Below, one piece after another: positions 2,692 through 34,925 of a stretch of 64,000 bases of DNA (positions are counted from its first letter, which is position 1; each line of letters begins with the position of its first letter). The notes under the pieces are model-generated. The model saw only the letters and a list, made by a program, of their open reading frames with translations, searched no databases and was not told the origin of the DNA. The stretch spans positions 1,149-65,148 of the forward strand of contig JAIBAK010000007.1 in NCBI GenBank assembly GCA_019695215.1. Reading direction: 5' to 3'. The DNA comes from Bacteroidia bacterium. Lineage in GTDB: Bacteria > Bacteroidota > Bacteroidia > UKL13-3. A program made the position numbers and the translations under genes.

Positions 2692-2726
2692 AAAAAAGCC
2701 CGGTGAGATTCATCGGGCTTTTTTAA
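2692..2726. terminator. Bidirectional rho-independent terminator shared by eno (+) and the convergent minus-strand operon
   Basis: AAAAAAGCCCGGTGA-GAT-TCATCGGGCTTTTTT has a 9-bp stem with an A6 run before it and a T6 run after it. It overlaps the stop codon of the minus-strand gene ending at 2723. Confidence 0.75.
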
Positions 2727-3406
2727 TCCTTTATTGGGATTAAACGGATATTGTCTATATCAATAAGAATAAAGCTTTTCACGGTCCCTTTCATCTTCTT
2801 AAATGTAATAATATCACCGTTAGGAATACCGCCAATATATATGAAATCTTGCCGTTCGTTAAGGAAAAATGTGATTGTATCTGTAAGTGTCACCCATTTT
2901 CTTTTTGGGAAAAAAGAGCTGTCGGGCGTATAAAGTGGATGATGAGTGCCACATGAGTTTTCCTTCCCAAATTCATTTGGATTTTTTAACAATCCATAAT
3001 TCAGTAGCCGATAGTTTAATTTATTGGTAGCGTACTTTGAATCCTCAGAAGTTCGCACATCTATTTTCAAAACAAAACGCCTTGGCCCAGAATTCCCCCA
3101 ATTTGTATCCAGAGGAAGTACTATATCCCCTTTTAAGTTTGCATCAGCATGTTTGTATAAACTGTTTACATGCCATAAATAGATAACCGAATAAACTTCC
3201 CCGTCCGAAGCTGTATCAGATACTGGTTTACCTTTACTTTCTTTGACAAAACCAGCAGGCCCGTTTATATAATAAATGGGCCCATTAACAGAATACATCT
3301 CCGCATTTTCCACGTAAGTTTCAAAGCTCCCATTCTTCACAATATTCTGCGATGTTACACTAAGACTGATCATGCAACAAAGAAAAACTGCTAAGGTTTT
3401 TACCAT
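2723..3406 (-). CDS. Hypothetical secreted protein with an N-terminal signal peptide. It is the last gene of cassette 1 and a candidate immunity protein for the upstream effector-like gene.
   Basis: MVKTLAVFLCCMISLSVTSQ is a signal peptide. Its start overlaps the end of the upstream gene by 7 nt. No recognisable catalytic motif. Confidence 0.55.
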   Translation of the reverse strand: MVKTLAVFLCCMISLSVTSQNIVKNGSFETYVENAEMYSVNGPIYYINGPAGFVKESKGKPVSDTASDGEVYSVIYLWHVNSLYKHADANLKGDIVLPLDTNWGNSGPRRFVLKIDVRTSEDSKYATNKLNYRLLNYGLLKNPNEFGKENSCGTHHPLYTPDSSFFPKRKWVTLTDTITFFLNERQDFIYIGGIPNGDIITFKKMKGTVKSFILIDIDNIRLIPIKD

Positions 3407-3969
3407 CTTGTATTAGTAATTATTCTACCAATTTGTTTAAATCTAGTGTTAGAAGTGCCACTACAAAAAATCTGAATCTCCACCTTTGATACATTATCAA
3501 CAATAAACTCATTACTCTGTTCAACCTCAGATTGTGTAATATTAGTAATTGTAAAGCCCCCTGCCCATCCGCTTCTTGGTTTCTGTGTTATTATACCACG
3601 AGAAAACTGTGATCTAACATTATCAGCCCGATTCTGTGATAAATTAACTCGCCTTAATAAATCTGCTAGCCCTTCCGGTGTTTCATAATCAATAGTTGCA
3701 GAAAGAACCATTTTACTCGTTATATAAACAGCATCTTCACTAAGGATAAGGGAATTGAGCGTGTTCAGACCTGCCAGTTGAGTCTCATTAAGAATAGCAC
3801 TCCAATTTGGAAAATTTATAGACGCTATTGGCAAGGGGTCAAGGGGTCTTGTCAAAAAATTTCCATCCCTATTTTCTGGTGCTATCCCAAAATCAGCCTT
3901 AAAGCTAGAGAGCCAATCTTCTGATAACCTTCCCCCTTTTGCCCACGGATTTTTAAATTCGAATGCCAT
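3400..3969 (-). CDS. Effector-like protein E1. It has the conserved N-terminus MAFEFKNPWAKGG shared with E2 and E3, followed by a unique C-terminal region of unknown function.
   Basis: Its N-terminal 12 aa and the junction with the upstream gene (stop, 2 nt, ATG) are conserved with the genes at 8268-8831 and 9797-10324. No signal peptide. Confidence 0.6.
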   Translation of the reverse strand: MAFEFKNPWAKGGRLSEDWLSSFKADFGIAPENRDGNFLTRPLDPLPIASINFPNWSAILNETQLAGLNTLNSLILSEDAVYITSKMVLSATIDYETPEGLADLLRRVNLSQNRADNVRSQFSRGIITQKPRSGWAGGFTITNITQSEVEQSNEFIVDNVSKVEIQIFCSGTSNTRFKQIGRIITNTRW

Positions 3970-3971
3970 AA

Positions 3972-5654
3972 CTATGCGGGATTTGAGGTTGGATTACAAT
4001 TACACCCGCTTTGAGGCACATCGCAACAATCAGTGAATACCTTTTTGTATAAGGTGGCCTTTTCAGTTGCATCGGTAAGCCCTTCTATTATATCAATAGC
4101 TTGTTGTTTAGCTACGTTTTCAAGATTAGCCTGCACAACAGCTGCATCCTGTAACTTGAGGTTGAAGCAATCCAAAGCCTCGCCCTGTCCCAGCAAAGCA
4201 TCAACAATTACTGAGTCAGTAGGTAACACGCGGCTTTCTACACTTTTTATTATACCATTAACTGTAATCCCCTCAGCCGTCATAGAAAGTCCTGTGTTTT
4301 TACGGAAGTAATCTTCAGTAAATTTCACACTACCTGTAGCGGAATCGTAAACATTCTCCGTTCTTTTTTCATAAAAGGTTTGCCTGGTTCCGGTGTAATC
4401 ATATACACTGTAATATTGGTCAACTATATCCTTAAAAACGTTGTCGGCATCTGTGGTGTTATTGAAAATACTTTTAAGTAAGGCTAATAATCCATCAACT
4501 TTAACTACTTGTTTAGTTTCTTCATACCCATTGGTATAAACAAATGAAACATCATCCAGATAAGTTATTGTAATGAGTTCCTGATTGAGTTGACGAAAAA
4601 CAAAATTGAGTACCCGACTTTTGTTTATATTTTCCAATATCCTAACAATACTGGTTTCGGTAGAGGTGGTTTCTGAGGTAGAGGTCTCTGTATTGATATC
4701 AAGTTTTCGGGATACCACTGATTTCTGAACCTGCTTTGATATTGCATTTGCCAATAATTTAATGTTCTCAGCTCGCAGCCCATTCATTGTAACTCCATTG
4801 GAGGAGCTACTCGAAAAGGAAGCTGCTCCTTTGCCACCGAACAATGGTATATTTAAGCCTGAACCGCTCTGTGAAGCCATATTATATCCCCCTGACTCTG
4901 TATGACTTTGAAGGCTGTCAATCTGAAGCATCTTTTCAAGCTCCTGGGTACTATCATTTGTTAAAGAATCAATAACATTCTGATAGTCTTTTTTGCTTTG
5001 GGTTGTTTGCTTATAACTCTTAATACTGATGGTGGTTTTCTCGCCCGGCAGCAATGTAAAAGTCTTAACAGTTTCTCCCGCACCGTAATCTCCAAGGTAA
5101 GTATTTACTCGATAATGCTCTATTACTGTAAGTCTTGGAACTGCACTAGCTGGTTGTTGCCTGAATTCAATTTTTTGATTGCCCATAATATCCACAACTG
5201 TTACAGGCATTCCATAAAGAGATTGAACTGCAATGCTACTTACAGCTTGTCCGGCAATAGTATAATCAGCAACCGGACTTGAAGTAGGGGCTGATTCAAA
5301 ACCCACCAAACTTGCAAGTGAATACTGTGGCGCAGCACTTACTGTTGGAGTTTCCTCTTCTGAATTTACATTTACAATATTGGGTGTGCCTACAGCTATA
5401 AAGTTATTTGCCATACGCGCGGTAATAGTTGAAGCATCCAGTCCGGCAACTATATCATAGTAGTTACCGCTAGGGGGCGAATCAAAACCTGCACCAGTTT
5501 TAAAATAGCTGCTGTTCACATCTAAGGGAATGTAAGCATTGGCAACAAACCCATTTGTTTGCGGAATGTTGTAATCAAGTTTGGGTGTTGAACCTGTTCC
5601 CCAATCGGTCATTGGATCTTTGTTGATGCAGCTTGATGGTGTTGTTTCTGGCAT
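3972..5654 (-). CDS. Hypothetical 560-aa protein. No signal peptide, Ser/Thr-rich, with a Cys-rich C-terminus ...LYKKVFTDCCDVPQSGCNCNPTSNPA.
   Basis: Long ORF with coding-like composition. Its last ~33 codons are duplicated in the 51-aa fusion ORFs at 8834-8989 and 10327-10482. Confidence 0.6.
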   Translation of the reverse strand: MPETTPSSCINKDPMTDWGTGSTPKLDYNIPQTNGFVANAYIPLDVNSSYFKTGAGFDSPPSGNYYDIVAGLDASTITARMANNFIAVGTPNIVNVNSEEETPTVSAAPQYSLASLVGFESAPTSSPVADYTIAGQAVSSIAVQSLYGMPVTVVDIMGNQKIEFRQQPASAVPRLTVIEHYRVNTYLGDYGAGETVKTFTLLPGEKTTISIKSYKQTTQSKKDYQNVIDSLTNDSTQELEKMLQIDSLQSHTESGGYNMASQSGSGLNIPLFGGKGAASFSSSSSNGVTMNGLRAENIKLLANAISKQVQKSVVSRKLDINTETSTSETTSTETSIVRILENINKSRVLNFVFRQLNQELITITYLDDVSFVYTNGYEETKQVVKVDGLLALLKSIFNNTTDADNVFKDIVDQYYSVYDYTGTRQTFYEKRTENVYDSATGSVKFTEDYFRKNTGLSMTAEGITVNGIIKSVESRVLPTDSVIVDALLGQGEALDCFNLKLQDAAVVQANLENVAKQQAIDIIEGLTDATEKATLYKKVFTDCCDVPQSGCNCNPTSNPA

Positions 5655-5692: not shown

Positions 5693-6682
5693 TTATGAAC
5701 TATAGTTATGAATAACTTTATGATTAAACACATAGCCGTTGCGAGTGGTAACGGTTACGTAATACAATCCGGAGCTTGAAATAAAAGGGAGTGCCAGCAT
5801 ATTTCTATTATCAATATGGGAAGATTGAACAACCCGTCCCATTAAATCTGTGATAACTATTTCAGTAATTGCATCCTGTTCACACAAATATTTTATTTCA
5901 AGATTCTCCATTACCGGGTTAATAATTTCAGGTATGACAGAACTTATTGGTGAAGAAACTCCTGTCGGGTTAGCTTTACCTGCCAAAATATTTATCTCCG
6001 CCTGTGTTAATATCCTGCTATAAAATCTGGCTTCGTCAAGTTTACCGTCATACCAATGCCCCATATTTGTATTAGTTAAACTCTGTGGTGTCGCATCGGG
6101 CACTTTCCCCGCGAACGAAACAGTCTTCACTTTTGCAGCGTCTATATACAAATCAATTACGGAAGTACTTCTGTTCACGTTTATTGATAGATGATGCCAC
6201 TGATTATCTAAAAGGGCTGTATTGGTATAGAGCAATTCCGCCTGGTCCGACAGAAAACTTGCTCTAATAATAAAATCAAATTGCCCCTTTACAAACTCAT
6301 TTGCAATTAAACTGACTCCCCTGTCATAAGGAGCATCAGTAGCATATAAAAAATCAATTTCATTTTGGTCATTTGTCATAAACCAGAATGAAATATTAAA
6401 ACTTGTAGAAGTACCAAAGGAGAGTGCTCCGTTAGAAACATTCATTTTTATTGCTGCATCTGATGAAAACAGCAATGCCTGATTTAGGTTGCTTTTTCTA
6501 TCGTAGGTGAAGTTAACTGTCCCCCCGCTGGCTAAAAATTTTGTAACCGTTGCCCCATTACCGGAAGCATCAGAAAGACTATTTGTAAACGGCAAATACA
6601 TAACGAGGCCCTGAGTGAGATCCTGACAGAAAGCATATCCTGAAATTGTCATTAAGATGATGACCAAATAAACTCTTTTCAT
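5693..6682 (-). CDS. Secreted LamG / concanavalin-A-like lectin domain protein with a C-terminal sorting domain for type IX secretion (T9SS)
   Basis: Signal peptide MKRVYLVIILMTISGYAFCQ. The LamG-like core includes DNQWHHLSINVNRSTSVIDLYIDAAKVKTV and GKLDEARFYSRILTQAEI. The C-terminal ~70 aa (...GLYYVTVTTRNGYVFNHKVIHN) match the T9SS CTD pattern. Confidence 0.7.
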   Translation of the reverse strand: MKRVYLVIILMTISGYAFCQDLTQGLVMYLPFTNSLSDASGNGATVTKFLASGGTVNFTYDRKSNLNQALLFSSDAAIKMNVSNGALSFGTSTSFNISFWFMTNDQNEIDFLYATDAPYDRGVSLIANEFVKGQFDFIIRASFLSDQAELLYTNTALLDNQWHHLSINVNRSTSVIDLYIDAAKVKTVSFAGKVPDATPQSLTNTNMGHWYDGKLDEARFYSRILTQAEINILAGKANPTGVSSPISSVIPEIINPVMENLEIKYLCEQDAITEIVITDLMGRVVQSSHIDNRNMLALPFISSSGLYYVTVTTRNGYVFNHKVIHNYSS

Positions 6683-6783
6683 AAGTACAAACAGTTAATA
6701 TTTTACCCAAAGTTGAAAATAATATTTCACATATGCAACTTTTTTCTCAAAAATTGTTAACTAAGATATACGGCCATTACGAT
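6626..6783 (-). promoter_or_regulatory. Conserved upstream block, copy 1. It covers the putative promoter/operator, the 5'UTR and the first ~19 codons. The 18-nt core AAAATYGTYAACTAAGAT lies at 6749-6767 (plus strand).
   Basis: Near-identical to 8933-9090 and 10426-10563. The core motif recurs at 11148-11165. Each copy sits 62-85 nt upstream of a minus-strand ATG. Confidence 0.55.
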
Positions 6784-6848: not shown

Positions 6849-7520
6849 CTACTCCTTCCATGCTTGCTGAACTTCCTTCAACGCTAATTCCATTAACAAA
6901 AAAATTCGGTTAACAGTCCCCCTTAATTTTTGCAGTTCATCAGGCAGCTCTTTTACGGGATGTGGTCCATCAAAATAAAAATACCAAAAACTTTTTATCT
7001 CCTTATCACTACGCTTAGCTAATAATTCCAGGAAAACACTAGTATCAGATTTTAATTTCTCCTGCATTGCGTGCTGAAAATAACCCACACCATCAGCATA
7101 CCACCTGCCATTGATACTTATATCAATCATTCGGTTGTAATATTGATTTTTGGGTATTACAGTTAATTTAAAAAATGCTTCTACATATAAATAAGCTTTG
7201 TTATATAAGGGGCTGTTGAAATCAGAAACCGGCTCTCCTAAAGGGTCTTTGTCTGAGTATCCAAATAAATGGTTGAACAAGTTAAACGTATTTGGAAAAG
7301 CAGCAAAATATTCTTGTTGATACTTAATTGTATATGGTGAGGAAGATACTTTTTGATATGCCCTTTTTAATTGCTCCGCTTTTTTTATTCCGTTTAACTG
7401 AGTATCCGCAACATTTGCATTTGCAATATTTCGGCAAGTTATATTCGCTGTACAACTTGAAAACAATTGACTAAACAATACTATAATAAATAATTTCATA
7501 TCATCGAATGGGTAGGTCAA
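6849..7520 (-). CDS. Hypothetical lipoprotein or secreted protein and candidate immunity protein. The real start is probably the internal Met at 7499 (MKLFIIVLFSQLFSSCTA).
   Basis: Signal peptide with a lipobox-like SSC. It lies between effector-like gene E2 and the upstream block of cassette 1. Confidence 0.5.
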   Translation of the reverse strand: MTYPFDDMKLFIIVLFSQLFSSCTANITCRNIANANVADTQLNGIKKAEQLKRAYQKVSSSPYTIKYQQEYFAAFPNTFNLFNHLFGYSDKDPLGEPVSDFNSPLYNKAYLYVEAFFKLTVIPKNQYYNRMIDISINGRWYADGVGYFQHAMQEKLKSDTSVFLELLAKRSDKEIKSFWYFYFDGPHPVKELPDELQKLRGTVNRIFLLMELALKEVQQAWKE

Positions 7521-7557: not shown

Positions 7558-8256
7558 CTATTGAGGTTCTACTTTGAACCACCATTTAGATTTAGGATGC
7601 CCGCTTGTAATCTTAAAAACTAATTTGCTTACTCCCTTCAAAGGTATAGTTACAGTTTGTATACTGTTAGTATTAGTCATTTCTGTTTTATAAAGTTGTA
7701 ACCCATTTTTATCTTCTACTATCAGCTGGTCTGATTCATTGTAAAAATGATAACTCAACCTTATCGCTGTTACTTTGCCAGTGAGTTGCAGTTCTTTTAC
7801 GCTGTTTCCTTCGCCAAGATAGGAATCCTCTTTATTAGCATCTGGAATTCTTTCATACTTTTCAACGATACACTCTCCATAATTAAAACAGATTTTTAGT
7901 AATTTACCTGTACCTCCTTTTATATACAGGGTAAGTTCCGCACTGGAATCGTGAAAGGTGACGTTCGTAGTAAACTTCCTGTTCTTTAAGGTTATTTTTT
8001 TATCCTTGGGATCATATATCCAATTCCCTTGCTCTATTGTTGGAATTTGGGTAGTAACACTGTAACAATCATTAAGAATTTGGTAATTGCCATCAGGATT
8101 AAATACTAACATATCAGGACACTCAACTGCTTGCTTTTTACTATTCTCAACACCCTTATATTGCCATCTACCGATTATTTTATGAGAAGCATTTTGAGCA
8201 TAGGCAATACCGCTTATCAACAATGCAATCAGAATAAAATTTACACCTGTTTTCAT
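7558..8256 (-). CDS. Hypothetical secreted protein with a signal peptide. It lies immediately downstream of the M23 effector and is a candidate immunity protein.
   Basis: MKTGVNFILIALLISGIAYAQ is a signal peptide. It is co-oriented with E2 at an 11-nt spacing. Confidence 0.55.
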   Translation of the reverse strand: MKTGVNFILIALLISGIAYAQNASHKIIGRWQYKGVENSKKQAVECPDMLVFNPDGNYQILNDCYSVTTQIPTIEQGNWIYDPKDKKITLKNRKFTTNVTFHDSSAELTLYIKGGTGKLLKICFNYGECIVEKYERIPDANKEDSYLGEGNSVKELQLTGKVTAIRLSYHFYNESDQLIVEDKNGLQLYKTEMTNTNSIQTVTIPLKGVSKLVFKITSGHPKSKWWFKVEPQ

Positions 8257-8267
8257 ACTTATATCGA

Positions 8268-8831
8268 TTAGGGTCCAAAGAAATATGGTGTTGGGTCAAC
8301 CCATTTGCCTCCTATCATTACCTGAACATGAATATGTGGTGTTATATCCTTGGGATAACCCAAATCTCCTAAATTAGCGGCCGTTCCTATTAATGTTTTT
8401 CCCCCAATTACAGTGTATGGACTCCATGCATTGATTTCACTAGGAATATTTACATATAAAATTCTCACTTTCTCAATCTCAATTGCAGAATCTGAAGGTG
8501 TAATATCTATCATTGGTTTTCCAGATGATGAGCCAATATAATTTACCGCTTTCCCAGTTACTGGAGATACTAAATCTTGCCCAACTATGGTTAAAATATC
8601 TATACCCATATGTTTACGGGCACCTCCGCTACGAGGAGCACCAAAGTGACCATTCCCATATGCATCCTGCCCCCTCAAAGCACCTCCACTTGGGTTGAAT
8701 AATAAGCTTACATCCGTGATATTCCTTTTAATAGGTATAACTGCCCCCTCTAGTGCCGTACCATTTATTCCAAACCATTTATCAAACTCTCTGTTACCTT
8801 TTCCCCAAGGGTTTTTAAATTTCAATGCCAT
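8268..8831 (-). CDS. Effector-like protein E2. Conserved N-terminus MALKFKNPWGKGNREFDKWFGINGTALEG... fused to a C-terminal M23 (LytM/lysostaphin-type) metallopeptidase domain.
   Basis: H-x-x-x-D motif (RKHMGIDIL) and an HxH motif in TPHIHVQV, aligned with the M23 consensus GPHLHFEV, at the spacing typical of peptidase M23. N-terminal 36 aa almost identical to E3. No signal peptide. Confidence 0.7.
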   Translation of the reverse strand: MALKFKNPWGKGNREFDKWFGINGTALEGAVIPIKRNITDVSLLFNPSGGALRGQDAYGNGHFGAPRSGGARKHMGIDILTIVGQDLVSPVTGKAVNYIGSSSGKPMIDITPSDSAIEIEKVRILYVNIPSEINAWSPYTVIGGKTLIGTAANLGDLGYPKDITPHIHVQVMIGGKWVDPTPYFFGP

Positions 8832-8833
8832 AT

Positions 8834-8989
8834 TTATTCGGGATTTGAGGTTGGATTACAATTACACCAGCTTTGAGGAACATCGCAACAATAAGTAAAC
8901 CCCTTTTTGTATAAGGTGGTGGCATGATTAGTACAGAAAAGAGAACCCGAAATTGTAATTAAAAGCATGACCAAATAAATTCTTTTCAT
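8834..8989 (-). CDS. Unannotated 51-aa fusion ORF: MKRIYLVMLLITISGSLFCTNHATTLYKKGFTYCCDVPQSWCNCNPTSNPE. It joins the signal peptide of the LamG gene to the Cys-rich tail of the 560-aa gene.
   Basis: Read on the minus strand. ATG at 8989, TAA at 8834-8836, then AT, then the E2 ATG. Residues 1-19 match the LamG N-terminus and residues 24-51 match the 560-aa C-terminus. Its first 81 nt are identical to the ORF at 10327-10482. Confidence 0.6.
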   Translation of the reverse strand: MKRIYLVMLLITISGSLFCTNHATTLYKKGFTYCCDVPQSWCNCNPTSNPE

Positions 8990-9090
8990 AAGCACAAACA
9001 GTTAATATTCTATCCAAAGTTGAAAATAATATTTCACATAAGCAACTTTTTTATCAAAAATTGTCAACTAAGGTATACGGCCATTACGAT
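8933..9090 (-). promoter_or_regulatory. Conserved upstream block, copy 2, with the core motif at 9056-9074
   Basis: Aligned with copies 1 and 3. It sits upstream of the fusion ORF and E2. Confidence 0.55.
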
Positions 9091-9168: not shown

Positions 9169-9768
9169 TTACCAAGTGTAATTTTTTATATCAAACCTTT
9201 CAAGAAAGGTTATTTTCCATCTTCCTTTTTCCTTTTTCGCTTTAACAAGGTAATCAAAATCGCCTCCCCATGTCCAATAATAGGTTGCAAAGTCATTATC
9301 CAATTTAATATTCTTAATCATTAATCTACTCCATATATCCGAAGGGTAATCCTGACAGTTACACCATTCGTCAGCATCATTTCCGTAAGGAGGTAATTCT
9401 CCTTTATAGTATTTAACCTGGTTATCATTTAGTTCTTTGTCTAGGTACAACGCAATTTTCATGTAGTTATCTATAAATTCCTGAGTAAAGAAATTTGTTT
9501 GGGATAATTCTTCCATTCTGGATTTCTGAACAAGCCAATCAATCCGCTCATAAATGCTGTCATTATCACTTGTAAGAGGGAAATCTCTATTGGTGTCAAC
9601 CTCATGCCACTTCAACAAATTCTTTGTTAAAGCCAAAAGTTCTAAACTATCAGTAGATAACTGTATATAGGCATGGCTATTTGTACCTGTGTCTTTCTGA
9701 GTATGTACACAACTAAAACTAATTACAAGTATTGAAACTGCTGATACCAGGCCATTAAATAATTTCAT
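9169..9768 (-). CDS. Hypothetical lipoprotein and candidate immunity protein for E3
   Basis: MKLFNGLVSAVSILVISFSCVHTQ is a signal peptide with a lipobox Cys. It lies directly downstream of E3. Confidence 0.55.
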   Translation of the reverse strand: MKLFNGLVSAVSILVISFSCVHTQKDTGTNSHAYIQLSTDSLELLALTKNLLKWHEVDTNRDFPLTSDNDSIYERIDWLVQKSRMEELSQTNFFTQEFIDNYMKIALYLDKELNDNQVKYYKGELPPYGNDADEWCNCQDYPSDIWSRLMIKNIKLDNDFATYYWTWGGDFDYLVKAKKEKGRWKITFLERFDIKNYTW

Positions 9769-9796: not shown

Positions 9797-10324
9797 TCAT
9801 GAGTTATTGTCAGTCCAACGGAATATTGCGTACATAGAATTTCTATACCCACTTCCGGGAAATTCGTTTTTCTCCTTAAAATCACTTAACCATTGATTAC
9901 CGTTGTACATATCAATATGACCATACTGGCTACCCCCGGGATATGGTTGAAACACCCTTATATCTCCTTTAATAGGTGAATAATTTGTACTACTTAAAGT
10001 ATTGAATCCCCAGCCCTGCAAAAAAGGTCCATAATCTTTTGCGGATACTGGATGAGGGTTTGTATTTATACCGCCCGCTTCTAAAGCTAATCTGACATAT
10101 TTAGCACATGCGTGCTGAGAAACTACTTTAGCATTATTGTCTAACCAGTTTACAGCTTTGTCAATATTGAAACTCGATTGGAATCCACCCACATTAACAT
10201 TACCACCATCCGAAATATCTCTTTTAATAGGTATAACTGACCCCTCCAATGCCGTACCATTTATTCCAAACCATTTATCAAACTCTCTATTACCTTTTCC
10301 CCAAGGATTTTTAAAGGAAGCCAT
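9797..10324 (-). CDS. Effector-like protein E3. Conserved N-terminus MASFKNPWGKGNREFDKWFGINGTALEG... with a C-terminal putative CHAP/NlpC-P60-like Cys-His hydrolase domain.
   Basis: A candidate catalytic Cys (SQHACAKYV) and a candidate His (GDIRVFQ...GHIDMY) sit at the spacing seen in CHAP amidases. The domain call is tentative. Confidence 0.55.
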   Translation of the reverse strand: MASFKNPWGKGNREFDKWFGINGTALEGSVIPIKRDISDGGNVNVGGFQSSFNIDKAVNWLDNNAKVVSQHACAKYVRLALEAGGINTNPHPVSAKDYGPFLQGWGFNTLSSTNYSPIKGDIRVFQPYPGGSQYGHIDMYNGNQWLSDFKEKNEFPGSGYRNSMYAIFRWTDNNS

Positions 10325-10326
10325 AA

Positions 10327-10482
10327 CTACAGAGAATTTGAGCTGGGATTACAATTACACCCACTTTGCGGCACATCGCAACAATCAGTAAACACCTTTT
10401 TGTATAAGGTGGTGGCATGATTAGTACAGAAAAGAGAACCCGAAATTGTAATTAAAAGCATGACCAAATAAATTCTTTTCAT
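10327..10482 (-). CDS. Unannotated 51-aa fusion ORF, copy 2: MKRIYLVMLLITISGSLFCTNHATTLYKKVFTDCCDVPQSGCNCNPSSNSL
   Basis: Same architecture as 8834-8989. The stop TAG at 10327-10329 is followed by 2 nt and then the E3 ATG. Confidence 0.6.
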   Translation of the reverse strand: MKRIYLVMLLITISGSLFCTNHATTLYKKVFTDCCDVPQSGCNCNPSSNSL

Positions 10483-10563
10483 ATGCTAAACTTTAAGATT
10501 ACAGTCAAAGTTGAGAATAATATTTCACATTCGCAACTCTTTTTAAAATCGTCAACTAAGATG
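10426..10563 (-). promoter_or_regulatory. Conserved upstream block, copy 3, with the core motif at 10545-10562
   Basis: Aligned with copies 1 and 2. Confidence 0.5.
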
Positions 10564-10612
10564 CATATATTGTTACAAGCGTTATTTTGACCAATACCTC
10601 AAAAATGTATGC

Positions 10613-11086
10613 TTATTTATTAGGTGGTAGAATAAAATAATTAGTTAAAAAGATTCTGAAGCATTCAATTTGAGCACCCACTGCTCCAATATCCGCATCA
10701 GTATTATAAAAAGAAGGATTTTGCACCACACTACAAAACGACTCATAAAGCGACCTGTGAGAATTGGTATTATATTGTTGTTCAACTTGAGCAAAAACAG
10801 AGTCAAGTGTATTTTTTTTAATCAACCTGACTAACGGGGTGCCCTTGTTATAAAGAGAAAGATATAAGTCAAAGTACTCCTCATGAATAGTATCTCCATT
10901 AGTTGAACTTTTGTGATAAACTTTGAACAAATCTTTAAATACATTGAACGACTTAGTATCCCTTTCTAATTTTATTGCAACTCTGGGAAGTAGCGTATCA
11001 TTCAAGCAAACGAGTCTTTCCTGCGGATAGCAGATAGCTATATGGTGCAAACTGCCAAAAAGGAAGATGAAAAATAAATGCTTCAT
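10613..11086 (-). CDS. Hypothetical secreted protein with a signal peptide, preceded by a fourth copy of the AAAATCGTCAACTAAGAT motif. Possibly an orphan immunity-like gene.
   Basis: MKHLFFIFLFGSLHHIAICYPQ is a signal peptide. The motif at 11148-11165 lies 62 nt upstream of the ATG. Confidence 0.5.
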   Translation of the reverse strand: MKHLFFIFLFGSLHHIAICYPQERLVCLNDTLLPRVAIKLERDTKSFNVFKDLFKVYHKSSTNGDTIHEEYFDLYLSLYNKGTPLVRLIKKNTLDSVFAQVEQQYNTNSHRSLYESFCSVVQNPSFYNTDADIGAVGAQIECFRIFLTNYFILPPNK

Positions 11087-11222
11087 TTTAATCCCATAAA
11101 GTGAATAATACTAATGCAAGCTACTAAAAGAGCAGCGCATTTCATATAAAATCGTCAACTAAGATAGACGCCCTGTTTATAACCCAATGCCTGAGTTAAA
11201 GCAATAACCTTAATTTTGCAAA

Positions 11223-11609: not shown

Positions 11610-12674
11610 ATGAAAAAAGCACTTCTTTTTATCATCGGTTTATATGCAGGCTGCCTGTGTGCGCTTGCCCAATTACCCAAAATTAAGTTACCGGCAGGCT
11701 CAGGTGCCATGGCTGCTGCTGCTGTACCCGGACCGGGCTCATACCATGCAGCACGTCCGGTAAATCCTAAAATCAACAATATTTTGCCCCGCTATTACAC
11801 AGCAACCGATGGAATGAATTACACCGCTGCCGAGGCTCCATCGGGCGAGTTGCAACTGAATAACTTTGATAAAATTCTTTTCGGTAAAGCACGTATAGAT
11901 AAAAATGGGTCGGCTGCCCAGCTTAGCACCACATTTAATGCAGGCGAAAGTATTTACGGACGTGCGTTTATGCGCACCTGCATGATGAACTACAAAACGT
12001 ACGGTACCCAAATGAATACCGACCCGCACAAATGTTTCGATGGCCGGTTTGAAGTAAACTATTCCATTGACGGAAAAGACATGGGTGTATTTATGACCAA
12101 CAGCCTTGACGGGGAACTGGAAAACAAAACAACCTTTACCATTATTGTGGTGGGCACCGGTGACGATGCACAGGCCAATAATGAAGCGTTTATTCAGGTA
12201 CTAAACAACCTTACCGATGGCAGCCACACCATACGCATGGTGGTGTGGGCCACACAAGGTCAATTCATTTCGGTTGACCCTGTAGCCATGGGAGAATTTA
12301 TCTATGTAAAAGGTGCCGGTTCAGGCAAAGTGGGTTTAGGGCGAAACTTCAGTTCGGTAAAAGATGAAATGCCCGACAATGCCGCGCTCAAAGCAAAATG
12401 TTTGAAAAAACTAAACGACCATGCCAAAGCCAACGGATGGAAAGAAACTTTTACCGAAGTAAAAATTACCGATGAAGACTGGAGCACGTTGCGCAATGAA
12501 GTGACCTCAGTAATTACCGGCCGCATCATAAATATTGCCGCCAAAGCTACCTGGCCCGATGGACATTGCACCTACCAGACTTTTAGCATGTTTTCGGATT
12601 ATGACGGAGCGGCTTATTCAAATGTGGTTTCGGTGCGCGGCATTGGCGAACAAACGAAAATAGATTGCAACTAG
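11610..12674 (+). CDS. Hypothetical secreted protein
   Basis: MKKALLFIIGLYAGCLCALAQ is a signal peptide. A long ORF with no recognisable motif. Confidence 0.5.
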   Translation: MKKALLFIIGLYAGCLCALAQLPKIKLPAGSGAMAAAAVPGPGSYHAARPVNPKINNILPRYYTATDGMNYTAAEAPSGELQLNNFDKILFGKARIDKNGSAAQLSTTFNAGESIYGRAFMRTCMMNYKTYGTQMNTDPHKCFDGRFEVNYSIDGKDMGVFMTNSLDGELENKTTFTIIVVGTGDDAQANNEAFIQVLNNLTDGSHTIRMVVWATQGQFISVDPVAMGEFIYVKGAGSGKVGLGRNFSSVKDEMPDNAALKAKCLKKLNDHAKANGWKETFTEVKITDEDWSTLRNEVTSVITGRIINIAAKATWPDGHCTYQTFSMFSDYDGAAYSNVVSVRGIGEQTKIDCN

Positions 12675-12675
12675 C

Positions 12676-13413
12676 TTGATTATTCTCCCTTCTGTTTTTG
12701 ATACCTCATACGGCATAGTAGCTGCACAAAGCACCCGTTTGGGTGGGGTGAGCCTCGCCCCTTTTTTCTCTCTTAATCTGGGCCTGTCGGTAAACGATAA
12801 GGAAGAACACGTAAAGCAAAACAAGGAGTTGTTTTTCGGTAAACTGGGAATTGCTTCTTCACGTATTTGCACCCAGCATCAGGTACACGGATGTGAAGTA
12901 CACATAACCAATGAGCCGGGACATCACAAAGGATTTGATGCACAGATTACCAATAAACGAAATTTGTTTTTGGCAGTATCTGTTGCCGATTGTACTCCCA
13001 TTCTTATTTATGATACCAAAAACCATGCGGTAGCCGCCATTCATGCCGGATGGAGAGGAACCGTTGCGCAAATTGTAACCCGCACCCTGCATAAAATGCA
13101 GAAAGAATACGGCACCGAAGGGAAAAACTGCTTTGCTTTTATTGGGGCTTGCATTTCGCAAAAGCACTTTGAAGTAGGTGAAGAAGTAGCCGCGCAGTTT
13201 GATGAGCCGCTCAAATATTTTGATGCAGCCAAACACAGATGGAAAGTGGATTTAAAAGCAGCCAACCGACAACAATTGCTTGCATTCGGACTAAAGGAAA
13301 GTCATATAGAAGTGAGCCACTATTGCACGGTTGAACACAATGAACTATTTTTTTCGCACCGAAAAGAAAACGGCACCACGGGCCGAATGATGGCGGTGAT
13401 AGGAATGAAATGA
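12676..13413 (+). CDS. pgeF: Peptidoglycan editing factor PgeF (YfiH/DUF152, purine nucleoside phosphorylase / laccase-domain protein)
   Basis: The RLGGVS, QVHG, ADCTPIL, AIHAGWRG and FSHRKENG-TGR motifs are diagnostic of the YfiH family. Confidence 0.85.
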   Translation: MIILPSVFDTSYGIVAAQSTRLGGVSLAPFFSLNLGLSVNDKEEHVKQNKELFFGKLGIASSRICTQHQVHGCEVHITNEPGHHKGFDAQITNKRNLFLAVSVADCTPILIYDTKNHAVAAIHAGWRGTVAQIVTRTLHKMQKEYGTEGKNCFAFIGACISQKHFEVGEEVAAQFDEPLKYFDAAKHRWKVDLKAANRQQLLAFGLKESHIEVSHYCTVEHNELFFSHRKENGTTGRMMAVIGMK

Positions 13414-17223: not shown

Positions 17224-17715
17224 TTATGGAAATTCTTTGATGAGTTGATCTATGATTTGCTTCAATTCCTTTATTTCCGAATCAATTTGCAAAAGTGAAT
17301 TTAGATATGCTTTAAGATGAAAATTTACTGAGGCATCTTGGCGTTTGCAAACATCTTTGTATGCAGAATAATCGTTAGGCAAACCAAATTCTCCAGTACT
17401 AATGTTATGAATGAGCCCTTCATCGTATGTCCATTTTTCAAAAATTGGATGAATAATTACAAACCGTTTTGATTGACCCATTCTTCGAATTTCAAGTGAC
17501 CCAATTCGCTTGTAGAACTGGTAATCCTCTTTTAATCTGTTTGGAGCTTGTTTATCTTTATCAATTAGAGCTATCCCAATTGAGTTATTATATCCAGGTG
17601 AATCAAGCGCTTTCAAAATATTTCCTACCCCTTCCTTGTGGTTTGCCTTTCTAAACCCTAGGACAGTAGTCAATGCAGTATTAGCATAACATTCTGGTAA
17701 TATCCTTAATTCCAT
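17224..17715 (-). CDS. Small partner protein of the ATPase, possibly a minimal TOPRIM-like fold
   Basis: Its start overlaps the ATPase stop (ATGA). An early Glu (LRILPECYA) is followed later by a hydrophobic strand and DxD (IGIALIDKDK), the order seen in TOPRIM/OLD-C/RloB-like partners. Confidence 0.5.
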   Translation of the reverse strand: MELRILPECYANTALTTVLGFRKANHKEGVGNILKALDSPGYNNSIGIALIDKDKQAPNRLKEDYQFYKRIGSLEIRRMGQSKRFVIIHPIFEKWTYDEGLIHNISTGEFGLPNDYSAYKDVCKRQDASVNFHLKAYLNSLLQIDSEIKELKQIIDQLIKEFP

Positions 17716-18791
17716 TAGTCAACAAATGCTTCATAGTTAATAAAAACGTCAGTCCCATAATTAAGCATTTCACCAATTTGCTTTTTAGTTAATTCCTTTA
17801 CTTCAGTTTGATAGTCTTTATACTTAGCAACAAATACTGCGCAATCTTTATAATCACAATGTTCAACCAAAGTACTTAATAGATAAGGACTATGCGTTGC
17901 AATAAAAAACTGATTAGATTCTGAATCAATCATTTCTCTAGCAATCCTATTAATATAAGGCGGGAAGCTATGGGCTTCCGGTTCCTCAAAAAGTAAAACA
18001 GAATCCTTATTAGATTTTATTGCGGACAGATAAAAAATTATTCTTCGCAAAGTATCAGCAATAAATTTGTATTCATATTTGTAAGATATTCCATCAACTC
18101 TTTTCTGTATTTCAAAAATATTTTCCTTTTGATCAATAAGGAATTCAAGCCCATACTCATCGAAAAACGAAGCAATCTCAGATCTTAGCTTTTTACTCTT
18201 AGTAAGTATCGTTAACAAATTATCTCCATCTGGTGTATTTAAAAAACTCGAGAAACTGTTCTCAAATGATTTTAGACGCTCATTAAATACATACTTTTTT
18301 ATTACCGTTTTTATTGTATGCGTATCCCTTGTTAAATTCAGGCTTCCATCAAAGGCAAGTTGTGAACCAGTAAATGGATAATTAACTATATCTAATCCAT
18401 TCTTACTTTCATTATATTGAGATAAAAATTTATCCCCTGATTTCTTGATATAGTTTTCATATAACAGCTCCATAAAATCAATATCCCCGGTGTACCAATC
18501 ATAACTATTAGAATTTGCCCTTTGACCAATAAAAGTTGCAATCAAATTTGTAAATATCTTTAGTGGTTTTGAGTCGTCATTATCATAGAACAATTGAAAA
18601 GGCTTATCAAACCTAATTATATCCTTTATTTGCCCATGACGTGAAAGTAAAGAAAGCGCTTCCAAGATATTACTTTTACCAACATTTGGCTTCCCAACAA
18701 ATACGTTTATTCGCTTGCATTTAATATCGATCTGCTTGACCGATTTGAAGTTTTCGATCTTAAGATAATGAATGTGCTTTTGAGCTACCAT
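17715..18791 (-). CDS. AAA_21/ABC-type ATPase (OLD/PARIS AriA/Septu PtuA-like N-terminal ATPase family)
   Basis: Walker A GKPNVGKSNILEAL, Walker B/D-loop LLFEEPEAHSFP, H-loop IATHSPYLL. Confidence 0.75.
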   Translation of the reverse strand: MVAQKHIHYLKIENFKSVKQIDIKCKRINVFVGKPNVGKSNILEALSLLSRHGQIKDIIRFDKPFQLFYDNDDSKPLKIFTNLIATFIGQRANSNSYDWYTGDIDFMELLYENYIKKSGDKFLSQYNESKNGLDIVNYPFTGSQLAFDGSLNLTRDTHTIKTVIKKYVFNERLKSFENSFSSFLNTPDGDNLLTILTKSKKLRSEIASFFDEYGLEFLIDQKENIFEIQKRVDGISYKYEYKFIADTLRRIIFYLSAIKSNKDSVLLFEEPEAHSFPPYINRIAREMIDSESNQFFIATHSPYLLSTLVEHCDYKDCAVFVAKYKDYQTEVKELTKKQIGEMLNYGTDVFINYEAFVD

Positions 18792-30344: not shown

Positions 30345-31532
30345 TTATTTTAAAATCTCTGTTACCTGACCTGCACCAATGGTACGACCTCCTTCACGAA
30401 TCGCGAAACGAAGACCTTTTTCCATAGCGATGGGTTGGATCAGTTTCACGGTGATGGTGGTGTTATCACCAGGCATAATCATTTCTACTCCTTCAGGCAG
30501 TACAGTTTCACCTGTAACGTCTGTTGTACGGAAATAGAACTGAGGACGGTATTTGTTAAAGAACGGAGTGTGACGTCCGCCTTCTTCTTTGCTCAATACG
30601 TAAACCTCAGCTTTAAATTCGGTGTGCGGAGTTACTGAACCCGGCTTACAGATAACCATACCTCTGCGGATATCATTTTTCTCGATACCACGAAGTAATA
30701 AACCTGCATTATCACCGGCTTCACCACGATCAAGTAACTTACGGAACATTTCTACACCAGTGATGGTTGAAGTCATTTTCTCGGCACCTAAACCGATAAT
30801 TTCAACCGGGTCACCCACGTTAATTACACCGCGCTCAATACGACCTGTAGCAACTGTACCACGACCTGTGATTGAGAATACGTCTTCTACCGGCATAAGG
30901 AAAGGAAGATCAACGGCACGTGGAGGAATTGGAATATAAGTATCTACCGCTTCCATCAGTTCCATGATTTTCTCAACCCATTTAGCGTCTCCGTTCAATC
31001 CACCTAAGGCAGAACCTTTGATGATTGGAATTTCGTCACCAGGGAAATCATATTTATTTAAAAGTTCGCGAATTTCCATTTCAACGATCTCAAGCAATTC
31101 AGGATCGTCAACCATGTCAACTTTGTTCATGAAAACAACGATACGCGGAACACCTACCTGACGGGCTAAAAGAATATGCTCGCGGGTTTGTGGCATTGGT
31201 CCGTCTGTTGCGGCAACTACCAGAATTGCACCGTCCATCTGAGCCGCTCCCGTTACCATGTTTTTAACATAGTCAGCGTGACCCGGACAGTCAACGTGCG
31301 CATAGTGACGATTCTGAGTTTGGTATTCAACGTGAGCTGTGTTGATGGTGATACCGCGCTCTCTCTCTTCAGGAGCCGAATCGATTGAATCAAAAGAACG
31401 TGCTTCTGAAAGCCCTTTTTCTGCCAATACTTTAGTGATGGCAGCGGTCAAAGTGGTTTTACCGTGGTCAACGTGACCGATTGTACCAATGTTTACGTGT
31501 GGTTTCGAGCGGTCGAAATTTTCTTTAGCCAT
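30345..31532 (-). CDS. tuf: Elongation factor Tu
   Basis: [18 protein letters not shown] and NKVD G-domain motifs; 395 aa. Confidence 0.98.
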
Positions 31533-32571: not shown

Positions 32572-33459
32572 TTATGACTTAGGGTGGGCTTGTTTGTGAA
32601 CATTCTTCAGCCGTTCTATGCTGTTATGAGTATAAACCTGCGTAGCCGAAAGATTCGCATGGCCCAGCAATTCTTTTATAGCATTTAAATCAGCTCCTTT
32701 ATTTAATAGGTGTGTTGCAAAAGTATGCCTGAGTACGTGAGGGCTTTTTTTATCAATTGTCGTAACCATACTTAAAAAACGATTTACAACCAGATAGGCA
32801 AATTTAGGATATAATTTAACTCCTTTATCACTGCACAATAATTCGGGATTTGAAAAACCGCACTGATTTTTGAGACCGAGGTAATTATTGATGCTTTTCT
32901 CTAACTCTTTTACCATTGGTATAATACGTTCTTTGTTCCGTTTACCCAGCACTTTCAGTGTCTTTCTCGAAAAATCCAAATCAGATTCAAGTAAGCCCAG
33001 TAGCTCTGATAATCGAATGCCCGTACAATATAGCAATTCTATAATTAATTTATTTCTGACTCCGGCAAAATCATTTGTAAAAAGCTCTTGCTCAAGCAAT
33101 ATTTCCATCCCTTTTTCTTCTACAAAGGCCGGAAGTTTTTTGGACGTTTTGGGGGCCTGCACCTTTAATAAGGGATTCTTTTGTATGATGCCTTCTTTGA
33201 GCAGGTATTTATAGAAGGTTTTTAGGGCTGAAAGCTTTCGGTTTACCGATCGGGGGTCGTTCCCGGTATTAAGCAATTCAACCATCCAGCTTCGTATCAC
33301 TGAATGGTTGACCTGATGTATAGAATCTATTTGATATTGTTGCTGCACATAAGACGAAAACTGATTCAAATCGTTTTCGTACGAGGTGGCTGTGTGTCCA
33401 GAATATTTTTTCTGGAAGGTTAGATATTCAAGGAAACCTGTAATTAGTTCAGGTTCCAT
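32572..33459 (-). CDS. xerC: Tyrosine recombinase XerC/XerD family
   Basis: C-terminal catalytic HxxR...Y region (VLRHTFATHLL...LLGHANLSATQVYTH). It sits in the housekeeping rpsU-xerC-hpf context. Confidence 0.8.
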   Translation of the reverse strand: MEPELITGFLEYLTFQKKYSGHTATSYENDLNQFSSYVQQQYQIDSIHQVNHSVIRSWMVELLNTGNDPRSVNRKLSALKTFYKYLLKEGIIQKNPLLKVQAPKTSKKLPAFVEEKGMEILLEQELFTNDFAGVRNKLIIELLYCTGIRLSELLGLLESDLDFSRKTLKVLGKRNKERIIPMVKELEKSINNYLGLKNQCGFSNPELLCSDKGVKLYPKFAYLVVNRFLSMVTTIDKKSPHVLRHTFATHLLNKGADLNAIKELLGHANLSATQVYTHNSIERLKNVHKQAHPKS

Positions 33460-33725: not shown

Positions 33726-34925
33726 TTAATCCTTTAAAACACTTCTCGAAATCACAAGTTTCTGAATTTCAGACGTTCCCTCTCCAATGGTGCAAAGTTT
33801 TGAATCGCGATAGAACTTTTCAACGGGAAAGTCTTTGGTATAACCATACCCGCCAAAAATCTGAACAGCCTCAGTTGATGCCCATACAGCTGTTTCTGAA
33901 GTATAGTATTTGGCCATGGCCGATTGTTTGGTAACCGGAAGTCCTTTGTTTTTTAAATCGGCTGCCTGCAAAGTCAGAAGTTCGGCTGCTTCAATGCGGG
34001 TAGCCATATCGGCCAGTTTAAAAGAAATAGCCTGAAAATTTGAAATAGGCTGCCCGAACTGATGACGCTCTTTGGAATATTTTACAGCCGCTTCGTAAGC
34101 TCCTTTGGCAATACCCAATCCAAGGGAAGCAATGGAGATTCTTCCTCCGTCAAGTACTTTCATGGCCTGAACAAAACCGTCTCCCACGTTTCCCAAAATA
34201 TTATCCTTATGGATCCGGCAGTCTTCAAAAATAAGCTCGGCCGTTTCGCTGGCACGCATACCCAGCTTGTTTTCCTTTTTCCCGCCTTTAAATCCGGGCG
34301 TTCCCCGTTCAACTACAAAAGCAGTAATACCACGGGAATCCAATAATTCTCCGGTTCGTACTAACACAACAGCCACATTACCCGATATGCCATGGGTAAT
34401 CCAGTTTTTGGTTCCGTTTATTACCCAATAATCTCCATCTTGTTTGGCCACGCATTGCATTCGCATAGCATCTGATCCGGTATTTGCTTCGGTTAAACCC
34501 CAGGCTCCAATCCATTCTCCCGAGGCAAGCTTAGGTAACCACTTCTTTTTTTGTTCTTCATTCCCAAATTGCAAAATATGACCTGTGCATAATGAATTAT
34601 GCGCAGCCATCGACAATCCAACCGAACCGCAAACTTTAGCCAGCTCAACTATAGCGGTTACATATTCTAAATAACCAAAACCAGCTCCGCCATATTGCTC
34701 GGGCACCAACACACCAAGCAACCCAAGTTTCCCCATTTCGGCAAACATTTCGCGGGGAAAAATCTGTTGCTCGTCCCACTCCATAATATTTGGACGAATA
34801 TGCTTTTCGGCAAAATCCCGAACCATTCCGGCTACCATTTTTTGATTTTCGGTTTGGCTGAAATGCATTTGCGAAGTGGATTCTGAACTGCTCATAGACT
34901 TAACGTTACTAAAATTAAACGGCAA
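33726..34925 (-). CDS. Acyl-CoA dehydrogenase
   Basis: Middle and C-terminal domains of the acyl-CoA dehydrogenase family, including GGYGY. Confidence 0.85.

Follow-up and report, generated by a model that had tools for sequence, protein, structure and literature searches.

The DNA analyzed here is a window of 64,000 nucleotides from a Bacteroidia bacterium (Bacteroidota; Bacteroidia; UKL13-3), corresponding to positions 1,149 to 65,148 of contig JAIBAK010000007.1 (assembly GCA_019695215.1). The gene under study lies on the minus strand of this window (3972..5654; ATG at 5654, TAG at 3974-3972) and encodes a 560-aa protein, here referred to as the carrier, which is followed directly by a gene for a putative effector. 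An earlier sequence-only reading had described the carrier as a Ser/Thr-rich protein without a signal peptide or a recognisable domain, and all of the features it named were found in place. Ser and Thr account for 19.8% of the residues (55 Ser and 56 Thr), there are low-complexity stretches (SSSSSNG and TETSTSETTSTETS), and the C-terminal end is CCDVPQSGCNCNPTSNPA, with the open reading frame (ORF) running to ...LYKKVFTDCCDVPQSGCNCNPTSNPA before the TAG. The six cysteines are at residues 9, 496, 543, 544, 551 and 553. Kyte-Doolittle profiles with a 15-residue window revealed no hydrophobic segment and no signal peptide at the N-terminus; the highest value in the protein was 1.63, at residue 383, while the three immunity-like proteins encoded nearby (I1-I3, see below) reach 2.2-2.5 at residues 4-7. 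No family in Pfam, NCBIfam, PHROGs or PADLOC matched the carrier (the best scores, Ig_mannosidase at E 0.068 and Cas2 at E 0.027, were noise), and PDB searches by sequence, with the single protein and with two profiles, returned nothing.

Carrier junctions and stub cassettes in the window

The gene for effector E1 (3400..3969, minus strand, 189 aa) begins 2 nt past the carrier stop codon. E1 has no signal peptide, carries the N-terminal tag MAFEFKNPWAKGG, and its toxin domain was not assigned to any family in a Pfam scan. The E1 stop is overlapped by 7 nt by the gene for immunity-like protein I1 (2723..3406, minus strand, 227 aa), which has an N-terminal signal peptide. Two further cassettes of this kind lie upstream of the carrier on the same strand, each headed by a 51-aa stub ORF. 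Stub ORF 2 (8834..8989) is followed by effector E2 (8268..8831, 187 aa, tag MALKFKNPWGKGN), with a weak M23/metallo-endopeptidase match, and by I2 (7558..8256, 232 aa, signal peptide). Stub ORF 3 (10327..10482) is followed by E3 (9797..10324, 175 aa, tag MASFKNPWGKGN), an endolysin/amidase-like protein matching PHROG 38472 at E 1.9e-14 and, weakly, Tae4, and by I3 (9169..9768, 199 aa), whose signal peptide is lipoprotein-like. Residues 4-39 of E3 and 5-40 of E2 are 92% identical (36 residues), and the two proteins are unrelated beyond this segment.

That a stop codon lies 2 nt ahead of the effector ATG in all three cassettes, as the sequence-only reading had it, can be read directly from the DNA: TAG-TT-ATG at the carrier/E1 junction (E1 ATG at 3969), TAA-AT-ATG between stub 2 and E2 (ATG at 8831) and TAG-TT-ATG between stub 3 and E3 (ATG at 10324). 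The same reading had 33 carrier codons retained in fusion ORFs. The retained segment is shorter, about 28-29 codons (ATLYKK...SNPA), and the stubs are genuine fusions, but of a specific kind, in which the signal peptide of a LamG-like protein (MKRIYLVMLLITISGSLFCTNH) is joined to the carrier tail (ATTLYKKGFTYCCDVPQSWCNCNPTSNPE). The LamG-fold gene in question is located upstream of the carrier (5693..6682, minus strand) and its product ends in a C-terminal sorting domain (Por_Secre_tail) of the type IX secretion system (T9SS). The first ~22 codons of the stubs (MKRIYLVMLLITISGSLFCTNH), together with ~100 nt upstream, are a copy of the start and promoter region of this gene (6626-6783 versus 8933-9090, 89% identity), and the region occurs a third time, in a more diverged form, at 10493-10543 and in part a fourth time at 11140-11173. 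The promoter-like region upstream of the LamG-carrier operon itself (6683..6783, minus strand) has copies at 8990-9090 and about 10483-10575 and a partial one at 11140-11173. The junction repeat is 167 nt long and present in three copies, of which those in the stubs are 90% identical to each other in DNA and 63% to the carrier.

Each stub appears to have arisen by a single deletion between LamG codon ~20 and carrier codon ~531, and the fusion ORFs are probably scars of deletion from which a promoter and an upstream reading frame are still provided. Two stubs that are 90% identical, followed by effectors with a shared start that then diverge, are the pattern expected from a duplication with subsequent replacement of the toxin and immunity genes. 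Since the promoter region, the upstream ORF and the 2-nt junction are all retained, E2 and E3 are probably still expressed. A programmed -1 frameshift joining carrier and effector was considered and rejected: ahead of the effector ATG its frame stays open for no more than 8 codons, all three cassettes having an in-frame stop 9 codons before the ATG, and a slippery heptamer was not evident. The LamG/T9SS gene was likewise rejected as a part of the system, being common only to the window and its closest relative, locus L011 (carrier 88% identical).

Carrier family and its tagged effectors

For comparison, 84 further loci were assembled with the window into 85 sources, the 3,681 ORFs of which were clustered all-versus-all, and 75 carriers were examined. 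The order of a carrier, a gene 2-14 nt downstream and a small third gene recurs in loci of 38-50% protein identity. A directly adjoining downstream gene without a signal peptide was present for 58 of the 75 carriers. Signal peptides or transmembrane (TM) starts were found in at least 35 of 48 third genes, with several more recognised by eye, and in 2 of the 58 effectors, both of them dubious high-GC ORFs. Clustering revealed no further conserved neighbour, whether accessory, secretion or lysis gene; no other gene family occurred in more than 13 loci, and those families that recur are effector or immunity families. In nine loci, the Tae4 effector is followed by a member of one and the same immunity-like family.

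The effectors share a short N-terminal tag of the form h-x-N-P-W, extended in some to h-x-N-P-W(-x-x-G-G). The pattern occurs 40 times in 578,910 residues, 38 times within the first 45 residues of an ORF; these 38 all lie on the strand of the carrier, and nearly all of them directly follow a carrier or stub. Trp9 of the tag is conserved at 90% or more in a set of 65 effectors that are otherwise unrelated, and variants include FWKxQW, NxW and W-G-x-x-V-L-D-S-K. The tag also varies with the carrier tail: a strict NPW effector follows 23 of 38 carriers with a Cys-cluster tail versus 1 of 8 with a ...PQTQ(I/V)I tail (Fisher p=0.02, phylogeny ignored). At a locus from Vicinamibacterales (L048), the ORF adjacent to the carrier (11660-12688, minus strand) is convergent with it and yet has a Trp-rich, tag-like start (MADPTFPSPWQAPP...SNSWDMG).

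Pfam recognised 16 of the 65 effectors as peptidoglycan enzymes, including Tae4 (8), Peptidase_M15_3 (2), Tlde1 (2) and one each of Amidase_3, M15_2 and glucosaminidase. The other matches were to DUF6402, in one effector, and to a transposase-type helix-turn-helix, in one or two, of which the case in L028 is probably a mis-assigned insertion sequence gene. In the Bacteroidota branch, the carrier, a conserved protein free of enzymatic motifs, is a fixed upstream partner of a polymorphic gene for a tagged, signal-peptide-less effector, and where Pfam recognises these effectors they contain peptidoglycan-cleaving domains. The sequence-only reading had suggested a carrier, an adaptor or a structural partner for the effectors, a view that comparative genomics supports through the adjacency in 58 of 75 loci, the shared tag and the lack of any other conserved neighbour. 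The homologue with a housekeeping role that would have spoken against it did not appear, and adjacency is kept in relatives down to about 30% identity.

The same reading had regarded the junction as a conserved site of translational coupling. The exact 2-nt spacer is indeed kept in a nearer clade (L011, L013, L014, L017, L019, L021, L023, L024, L071, L001 and L007, at ~41-88% protein identity), but it varies elsewhere, and the identity of the junctions within the window is due to duplication. Stubs of the carrier tail ahead of extra effectors were found in 5 of 84 loci; stub-bearing loci are the window and L007, with two each, L066, L071 and L026. One of the L007 stubs retains the first 17 and the last ~150 residues of the carrier.

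The family as a whole is large, with more than 1,062 carrier homologues, all annotated as hypothetical and without a Pfam domain, and at least 1,814 clusters at 50% identity for E<=1e-3 (738 for E<=1e-30). The RefSeq name of every member is 'hypothetical protein'. Carrier loci in species-representative genomes number 227, and two or three are often found in single metagenome-assembled genomes. Hosts are mainly Bacteroidota (Chryseobacterium, Myroides, Flavobacterium, Galbibacter, Fluviicola, Ferruginibacter, Saprospiraceae and Bacteroidales), in addition to Alphaproteobacteria (Kiloniella, Reyranella), Gammaproteobacteria and Acidobacteriota. When a distant member, the core of which is about 50% identical to its hits, was used as the query instead, Bacillus gaemokensis, Brevibacillus laterosporus, Calothrix, Chloroflexi and haloarchaea were added, with proteins 26-32% identical to the window carrier. 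Full-text searches, subscription-only papers aside, returned no account of the carrier family or of the NPW effector tag, and neither was found in the catalogue of trafficking domains by Zhang et al. (2012; PMC3482391).

Carriers of the distant branch (Bacillus, Halovivax, Calothrix, Acidobacteriota) are likewise followed by a closely linked gene or by one that overlaps them. The products of these genes bear no relation to one another: an OmpA-like protein (359 aa), an HExxH protein (237 aa) and proteins of 275, 458 and 479 aa without assigned function. At least 15 of 120 distant homologues contain two to four Ig-like domains (Big_7, Big_13), inserted exactly at the site that is hypervariable in the Bacteroidota proteins, which we take as a hint of an extracytoplasmic role for the carrier. 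Such Ig-bearing members are 770-1,160 aa long (P0351, P0333, P0362, P0370 and L095 8001-10793; Big_7, Big_13 and Glucodextran_B). Other homologues (P0148, P0138, P0143) have C-terminal extensions past the CC motif, consisting of a YegP/DUF1508-like repeat recognised by eye in one and of a 160-175-aa Gly/Thr-rich segment in two; their interpretation as natural carrier-toxin fusions was rejected, as these Gly/Thr-rich or YegP-like extensions contain no recognisable toxin. In Bacillus gaemokensis, the carrier-family member (L091, 3912-6599) is located in an island together with a kinase-LanC protein resembling class III/IV lanthipeptide synthetases and with three serine recombinases, a context that suggests a mobile, conflict-related island.

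Predicted structure and remaining genes of the window

Conservation along the carrier was assessed by alignment columns across 65 homologues. The N-terminal motif SSCxxKxPFIKL...LNYNLPQ (residues 1-32, mean column conservation 0.62) includes Cys9, which is invariant within the Bacteroidota branch, and is followed by a hypervariable region that is the site of the largest insertions (residues 63-148, 0.30). The ENINKSRVLNFVFRQL strand (residues 337-376, 0.80) and a strand together with LLGQGEALDC (residues 467-503, 0.77) are well conserved, and the tail LYKKVFGxCCDVPQ (residues 532-549, 0.80) is on par with the core, among the best-conserved parts of the protein. Further recognisable elements are the long beta-hairpin core (SYLGDYGAGxTVKTFSLLPGEKTTISIK), a Gly/Ser-rich amphipathic hairpin (~259-285), a Ser/Thr-rich hairpin (315-336) and a 33-residue helix (492-524) that precedes the tail LYKKVFTDCCDVPQSGCNCNPTSNPA. 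A thioester between Cys and Gln, or transglutaminase-like chemistry, at CCDVPQ is no more than a conceivable idea.

Two AlphaFold2 models were obtained, from 65 sequences (predicted local distance difference test, pLDDT, 69; predicted TM-score, pTM, 0.65) and from 121 sequences (pLDDT 77, pTM 0.73). Both predict an elongated sheet whose strands are 21-28 residues long (174-201, 349-374, 468-488), an alpha/beta insertion (382-465), and the 33-residue helix leading through a short helix into an unstructured Cys-rich tail; confidence is low for the N-terminus, the variable region and both low-complexity stretches. Structure prediction, a check proposed by the sequence-only reading, yielded a long beta-sheet fold but no significant neighbour in PDB, the best Foldseek scores of the two models being E 0.03 and 0.05 with TM-scores <= 0.23 and root-mean-square deviations of 18-33 A. 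About 40-45 of the top 50 Foldseek matches in PDB were beta-pore-forming toxins in both runs, among them Cry35/Tpp, Cry78, aerolysin, monalysin, parasporin-2, C. perfringens enterotoxin, cholesterol-dependent cytolysins and leukocidins. Averaged over the family, the beta-amphipathic moment is highest at 259-268, 281-282 and 315-324 (maximum 0.67, mean 0.24 +/- 0.10), coinciding exactly with the Gly/Ser-rich and Ser/Thr-rich segments; the scores of other surface strands are similar. The first of these segments is represented in the distant branch by a conserved hairpin that alternates strictly and has an aromatic residue group at its tip (FEYHAEAEAxASWGWGSAKVSGGVKGG). We regard these modelled, pore-former-like traits as a lead, not as a classification. 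The sole confident match in BFVD was an uncharacterised 642-aa protein of Yasminevirus (A0A5K0U6Q4; E 3e-8, probability 1.0, 16% identity), which suggests transfer of the carrier family into a giant virus, or contamination. An encapsulin/HK97 shell or phage structural protein was rejected as an identity for the carrier, given no match in PHROGs and no capsid in BFVD or PDB.

Beyond the three cassettes, the window contains an orphan immunity-like gene (10613..11086, minus strand, 157 aa, signal peptide), with a partial promoter-like repeat of its own at 11140-11173. It is homologous to genes that follow Tae4 effectors elsewhere (e.g., L004, L015, L081) and in the window is not beside a Tae4-family effector; it may protect against the Tae4 toxins of neighbours. 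Between I2 and the LamG gene lies a 223-aa ORF (6849..7520, minus strand, TTG start) with a possible signal peptide a few codons in, for which there was no family match and no homologue in any of the loci compared. Further away, a 358-aa AAA_15/AAA_21 ATPase with AbiEii/OLD-like domains shares 1 nt with an ORF of 163 aa without a Pfam match (17224-18791, minus strand). This pair, with the toxin island on one side and rpoC on the other, resembles a small two-gene module of the defence or toxin-antitoxin (TA) type. A tyrosine recombinase (32572-33459; Phage_integrase with a SAM-like N-terminal domain) is encoded amid housekeeping genes (EF-Tu at 30345-31532, acyl-CoA dehydrogenase at 33726-34925) and could be XerC/D or an integrase marking an island boundary.

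A candidate two-polypeptide toxin system and its alternatives

Based on gene order and conservation, we propose, at a probability of roughly 0.55, that a two-polypeptide polymorphic antibacterial toxin system is encoded here and that the 560-aa protein serves as its carrier subunit, which is invariant and non-enzymatic. The tagged effector would dock on the carrier, most likely at the conserved C-terminal helix and the LYKKVFGxCCDVPQSGCxC tail, and the carrier would export it from the producing cell and deliver it to a competitor's periplasm, while the product of the third gene would shield the producer's own cell wall. The 3' end of the carrier gene and the 5' end of the effector gene could serve as a homology arm for swapping effector-immunity cassettes, and such exchange would leave stubs behind, like the two in the window. 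Because these stubs keep a copy of the promoter and a frame ending 2 nt before the ATG, E2 and E3 are probably expressed, and loaded in trans on the single full-length carrier. In the most speculative step, a carrier oligomer would insert its two Ser/Thr/Gly-rich amphipathic hairpins in the fashion of a beta-pore-forming toxin, and the resulting binary A/B toxin would pass the hydrolase across a membrane. One may speculate that a carrier and cargo that are never fused fit a stoichiometry of many carrier subunits per one cargo, like that of oligomeric binary toxins.

In its logic the arrangement follows polymorphic toxin systems, a known kind; its distinguishing traits are an unnamed partner on a separate polypeptide, without a structural relative, the short cargo tag and the lack of a linked secretion system. 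Polymorphic toxin systems with orphan cassettes include Rhs, CdiA-CT/CdiI and MafB (Zhang et al., 2012; PMC3482391). The carrier loci share with such systems a conserved delivery part combined with many unrelated toxin domains, here on a common N-terminal element (E2 and E3 in the window, and the 65 effectors in general), an adjoining candidate immunity gene, and orphan cassettes that carry a short fragment of the conserved gene usable as a recombination arm. In polymorphic toxins the toxin is the C-terminus of the trafficking polypeptide, and carrier-cargo fusion is the norm in Rhs/CDI-type (contact-dependent inhibition) toxins; here carrier and toxin are separate ORFs in every locus, presumably linked only by the short N-terminal tag of the toxin. 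Known trafficking domains, such as YD/Rhs, FHA, PAAR and LXG, are moreover absent from the carrier, as is a signal peptide, and the window stubs are positioned upstream of the full gene with a promoter copy of their own.

Likenesses to binary A/B toxins (anthrax PA with LF/EF, Vip1/Vip2, C2, iota) are the two adjoining genes, a conserved beta-rich subunit with candidate amphipathic insertion hairpins, and several alternative enzymatic subunits sharing a putative N-terminal docking element. Unlike these, the carrier has no PA14 or Binary_toxB domain and no significant match in sequence or structure (no PA-like chain was among the top 50 Foldseek matches listed per run), the proteins lack signal peptides, and the targets would be bacteria instead of eukaryotic cells. 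With aerolysin/ETX-MTX2, Toxin_10 (Tpp) and cholesterol-dependent cytolysins the carrier has in common a predicted elongated sheet of very long strands and candidate Ser/Thr-rich alternating hairpins, whereas Pfam gave no match to them, all structural matches were non-significant (E >= 0.03, TM-score <= 0.23), and the C-terminal helix and Cys-rich tail of the carrier have no counterpart there.

A number of observations weigh against the proposal. Seventeen of the 75 carriers have no adjoining effector, and in a proteobacterial clade (L042, L044, L053, L075 and L085; Halopseudomonas, Kiloniella, Rhodospirillales), where the tail reads CCEGE.../CCC.EELE and lacks the PQ motif, no effector gene adjoins at all, so that these are either solitary carriers or proteins of another function. 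Distant-branch loci have no NPW tag and no evident immunity gene, and the ancestral role may differ. Outside the nearer clade the spacing between carrier and effector ranges from -1 to about 100 nt, making the exact 2-nt junction clade-specific. No carrier-effector fusion was found among the 150 best representatives, which is unusual for polymorphic toxins and leaves the sequence-only reading's search for homologues fused to other toxin domains without a case. The pore-former resemblance of the models may reflect long twisted hairpins alone. Neither carrier nor effector has a recognisable export signal or linked export machinery; all functional steps above are drawn from gene order and sequence, and the label 'immunity' from position and signal peptides.

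Independence from type VI and type IX secretion and an autonomous, at least partly extracellular role of the carrier are favoured given the monoderm and archaeal members, the lack of linked machinery and the Ig insertions. Taken further, the carrier could belong to a self-sufficient protein-translocating module spread across Bacteria and Archaea, a beta-pore-former-like B subunit of unseen fold with interchangeable A subunits held by its tail; this wider idea we advance only tentatively and consider doubtful. In it, the hypervariable and sometimes Ig-decorated region would pick the target, and the Cys-rich tail would hold A subunits by their roughly 10-residue N-terminal tag, to be threaded across a membrane. 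In Bacteroidota, this would bring peptidoglycan hydrolases across a rival's outer membrane without a type VI secretion system (T6SS), T9SS or other apparatus.

The alternative that fares best is that the carrier is a cytoplasmic adaptor or chaperone, modelled on DUF4123/Tap, Eag or DUF2169 adaptors, which loads NPW-tagged cargo on a contractile or other apparatus encoded elsewhere, such as a T6SS-iii or an extracellular contractile injection system. Much of the locus resembles a T6SS cargo module: a signal-peptide-less effector aimed at peptidoglycan combined with periplasmic immunity is the classic T6SS pattern, matched here by the exported immunity-like protein; Tae4 and Tlde1 are families first defined among T6SS effectors; and a conserved non-enzymatic gene directly upstream is where known adaptors are found relative to their effectors. 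T6SS-iii occurs in groups containing Chryseobacterium, Myroides and Flavobacterium. However, no VgrG, Hcp, PAAR, sheath or baseplate gene was found in the four Pfam-annotated 20-kb Bacteroidota loci or among the scanned window ORFs, nor were the adaptor domains DUF4123, DUF1795 or DUF2169 in the Pfam-annotated Bacteroidota contexts or the same window ORFs, and in Pfam-annotated loci of 38-50% identity no T6SS, contractile-particle or T9SS gene adjoins the carrier; across the 85 loci no conserved neighbour was found. The layout of a conserved plus a variable gene is also found in Bacillus, Brevibacillus, Calothrix and haloarchaea, which lack T6SS, and 560 aa with a hypervariable, sometimes Ig-decorated region is unlike the small known adaptors. 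Given homologues in Firmicutes, Cyanobacteria and Archaea (Bacillus, Calothrix, Halovivax), the presence of a T6SS in every carrier-bearing genome is, indirectly, unlikely, and we consider an adaptor role unlikely too. The traits of T9SS cargo, a Sec signal peptide with a C-terminal sorting domain, were seen in neither carrier nor effectors.

Less probable again is an intracellular suicide or defence function, akin to abortive infection, or a lysis cassette, in which a cytoplasmic carrier, once triggered, would permeabilise the inner membrane of the producer like a gasdermin or holin and free the hydrolase into the periplasm of that cell, with the variable gene that follows as executioner or activator. 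A carrier without a signal peptide, its weakly pore-former-like architecture with amphipathic hairpins, and the pairs without an immunity gene in the distant branch would suit this, as would the many downstream genes for peptidase-fold enzymes, the vicinity of some loci to TA, NTPase or recombinase genes, and a spread from bacteria to archaea at about 50% core identity that is typical of mobile conflict systems. The Cys in the N-terminal region that is invariant in the Bacteroidota branch, combined with a conserved C-terminal peptide, is reminiscent of bacterial gasdermins, which have a palmitoylated N-terminal Cys and an inhibitory C-terminal peptide. Yet bacterial gasdermins are about 250-300 aa long, and an identification of the 560-aa carrier as one was rejected, with PADLOC empty and neither gasdermin nor holin among the top 50 Foldseek matches listed per run. 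A dedicated exported protein after almost every Bacteroidota effector, and the orphan effector-immunity arrays and orphan immunity genes that are hallmarks of antagonism between cells, also argue against self-killing, and the Ig-domain insertions indicate an extracellular role.

Finally, that the carrier alone is the toxin, a stand-alone pore-former with the hydrolase in an accessory role and a junction that owes its conservation to nothing but a recent duplication, would agree with the weak beta-pore-forming-toxin resemblance, the 17 carriers without an effector and the duplicated junctions of the window, but is highly improbable because it leaves unexplained the highly specific effector tag, its co-variation with the carrier tail, the tail-only stubs ahead of new effectors and the immunity-like genes matched to effector type (the same family after Tae4 in nine loci).

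The delivery of interbacterial toxins is at present ascribed to a few machines: type I, IV, V (CDI), VI and VII secretion, contractile particles, outer-membrane exchange and colicin-like import. The family described here comprises over 1,000 clusters without a name, a Pfam model or a solved relative, and is tied to swappable cell-wall toxins and to exported immunity-like proteins, and unlinked to any of those machines. If the carrier role proposed above is true, the succession of a carrier, an NPW-tagged ORF and an exported ORF would provide a mining rule for hundreds of new hydrolase toxins and immunity proteins in Bacteroidota, a short portable tag might be used to direct arbitrary cargo, and an export and import route that has so far gone unexplained would be exposed. 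Cultivable hosts, including Chryseobacterium indologenes, Myroides, Galbibacter, Kiloniella, Reyranella and Bacillus gaemokensis, make the question testable. Should the wider idea of a self-sufficient translocating module hold, the carrier and its cargo would represent a new class of interbacterial weapon, a 'binary bacteriocin'.

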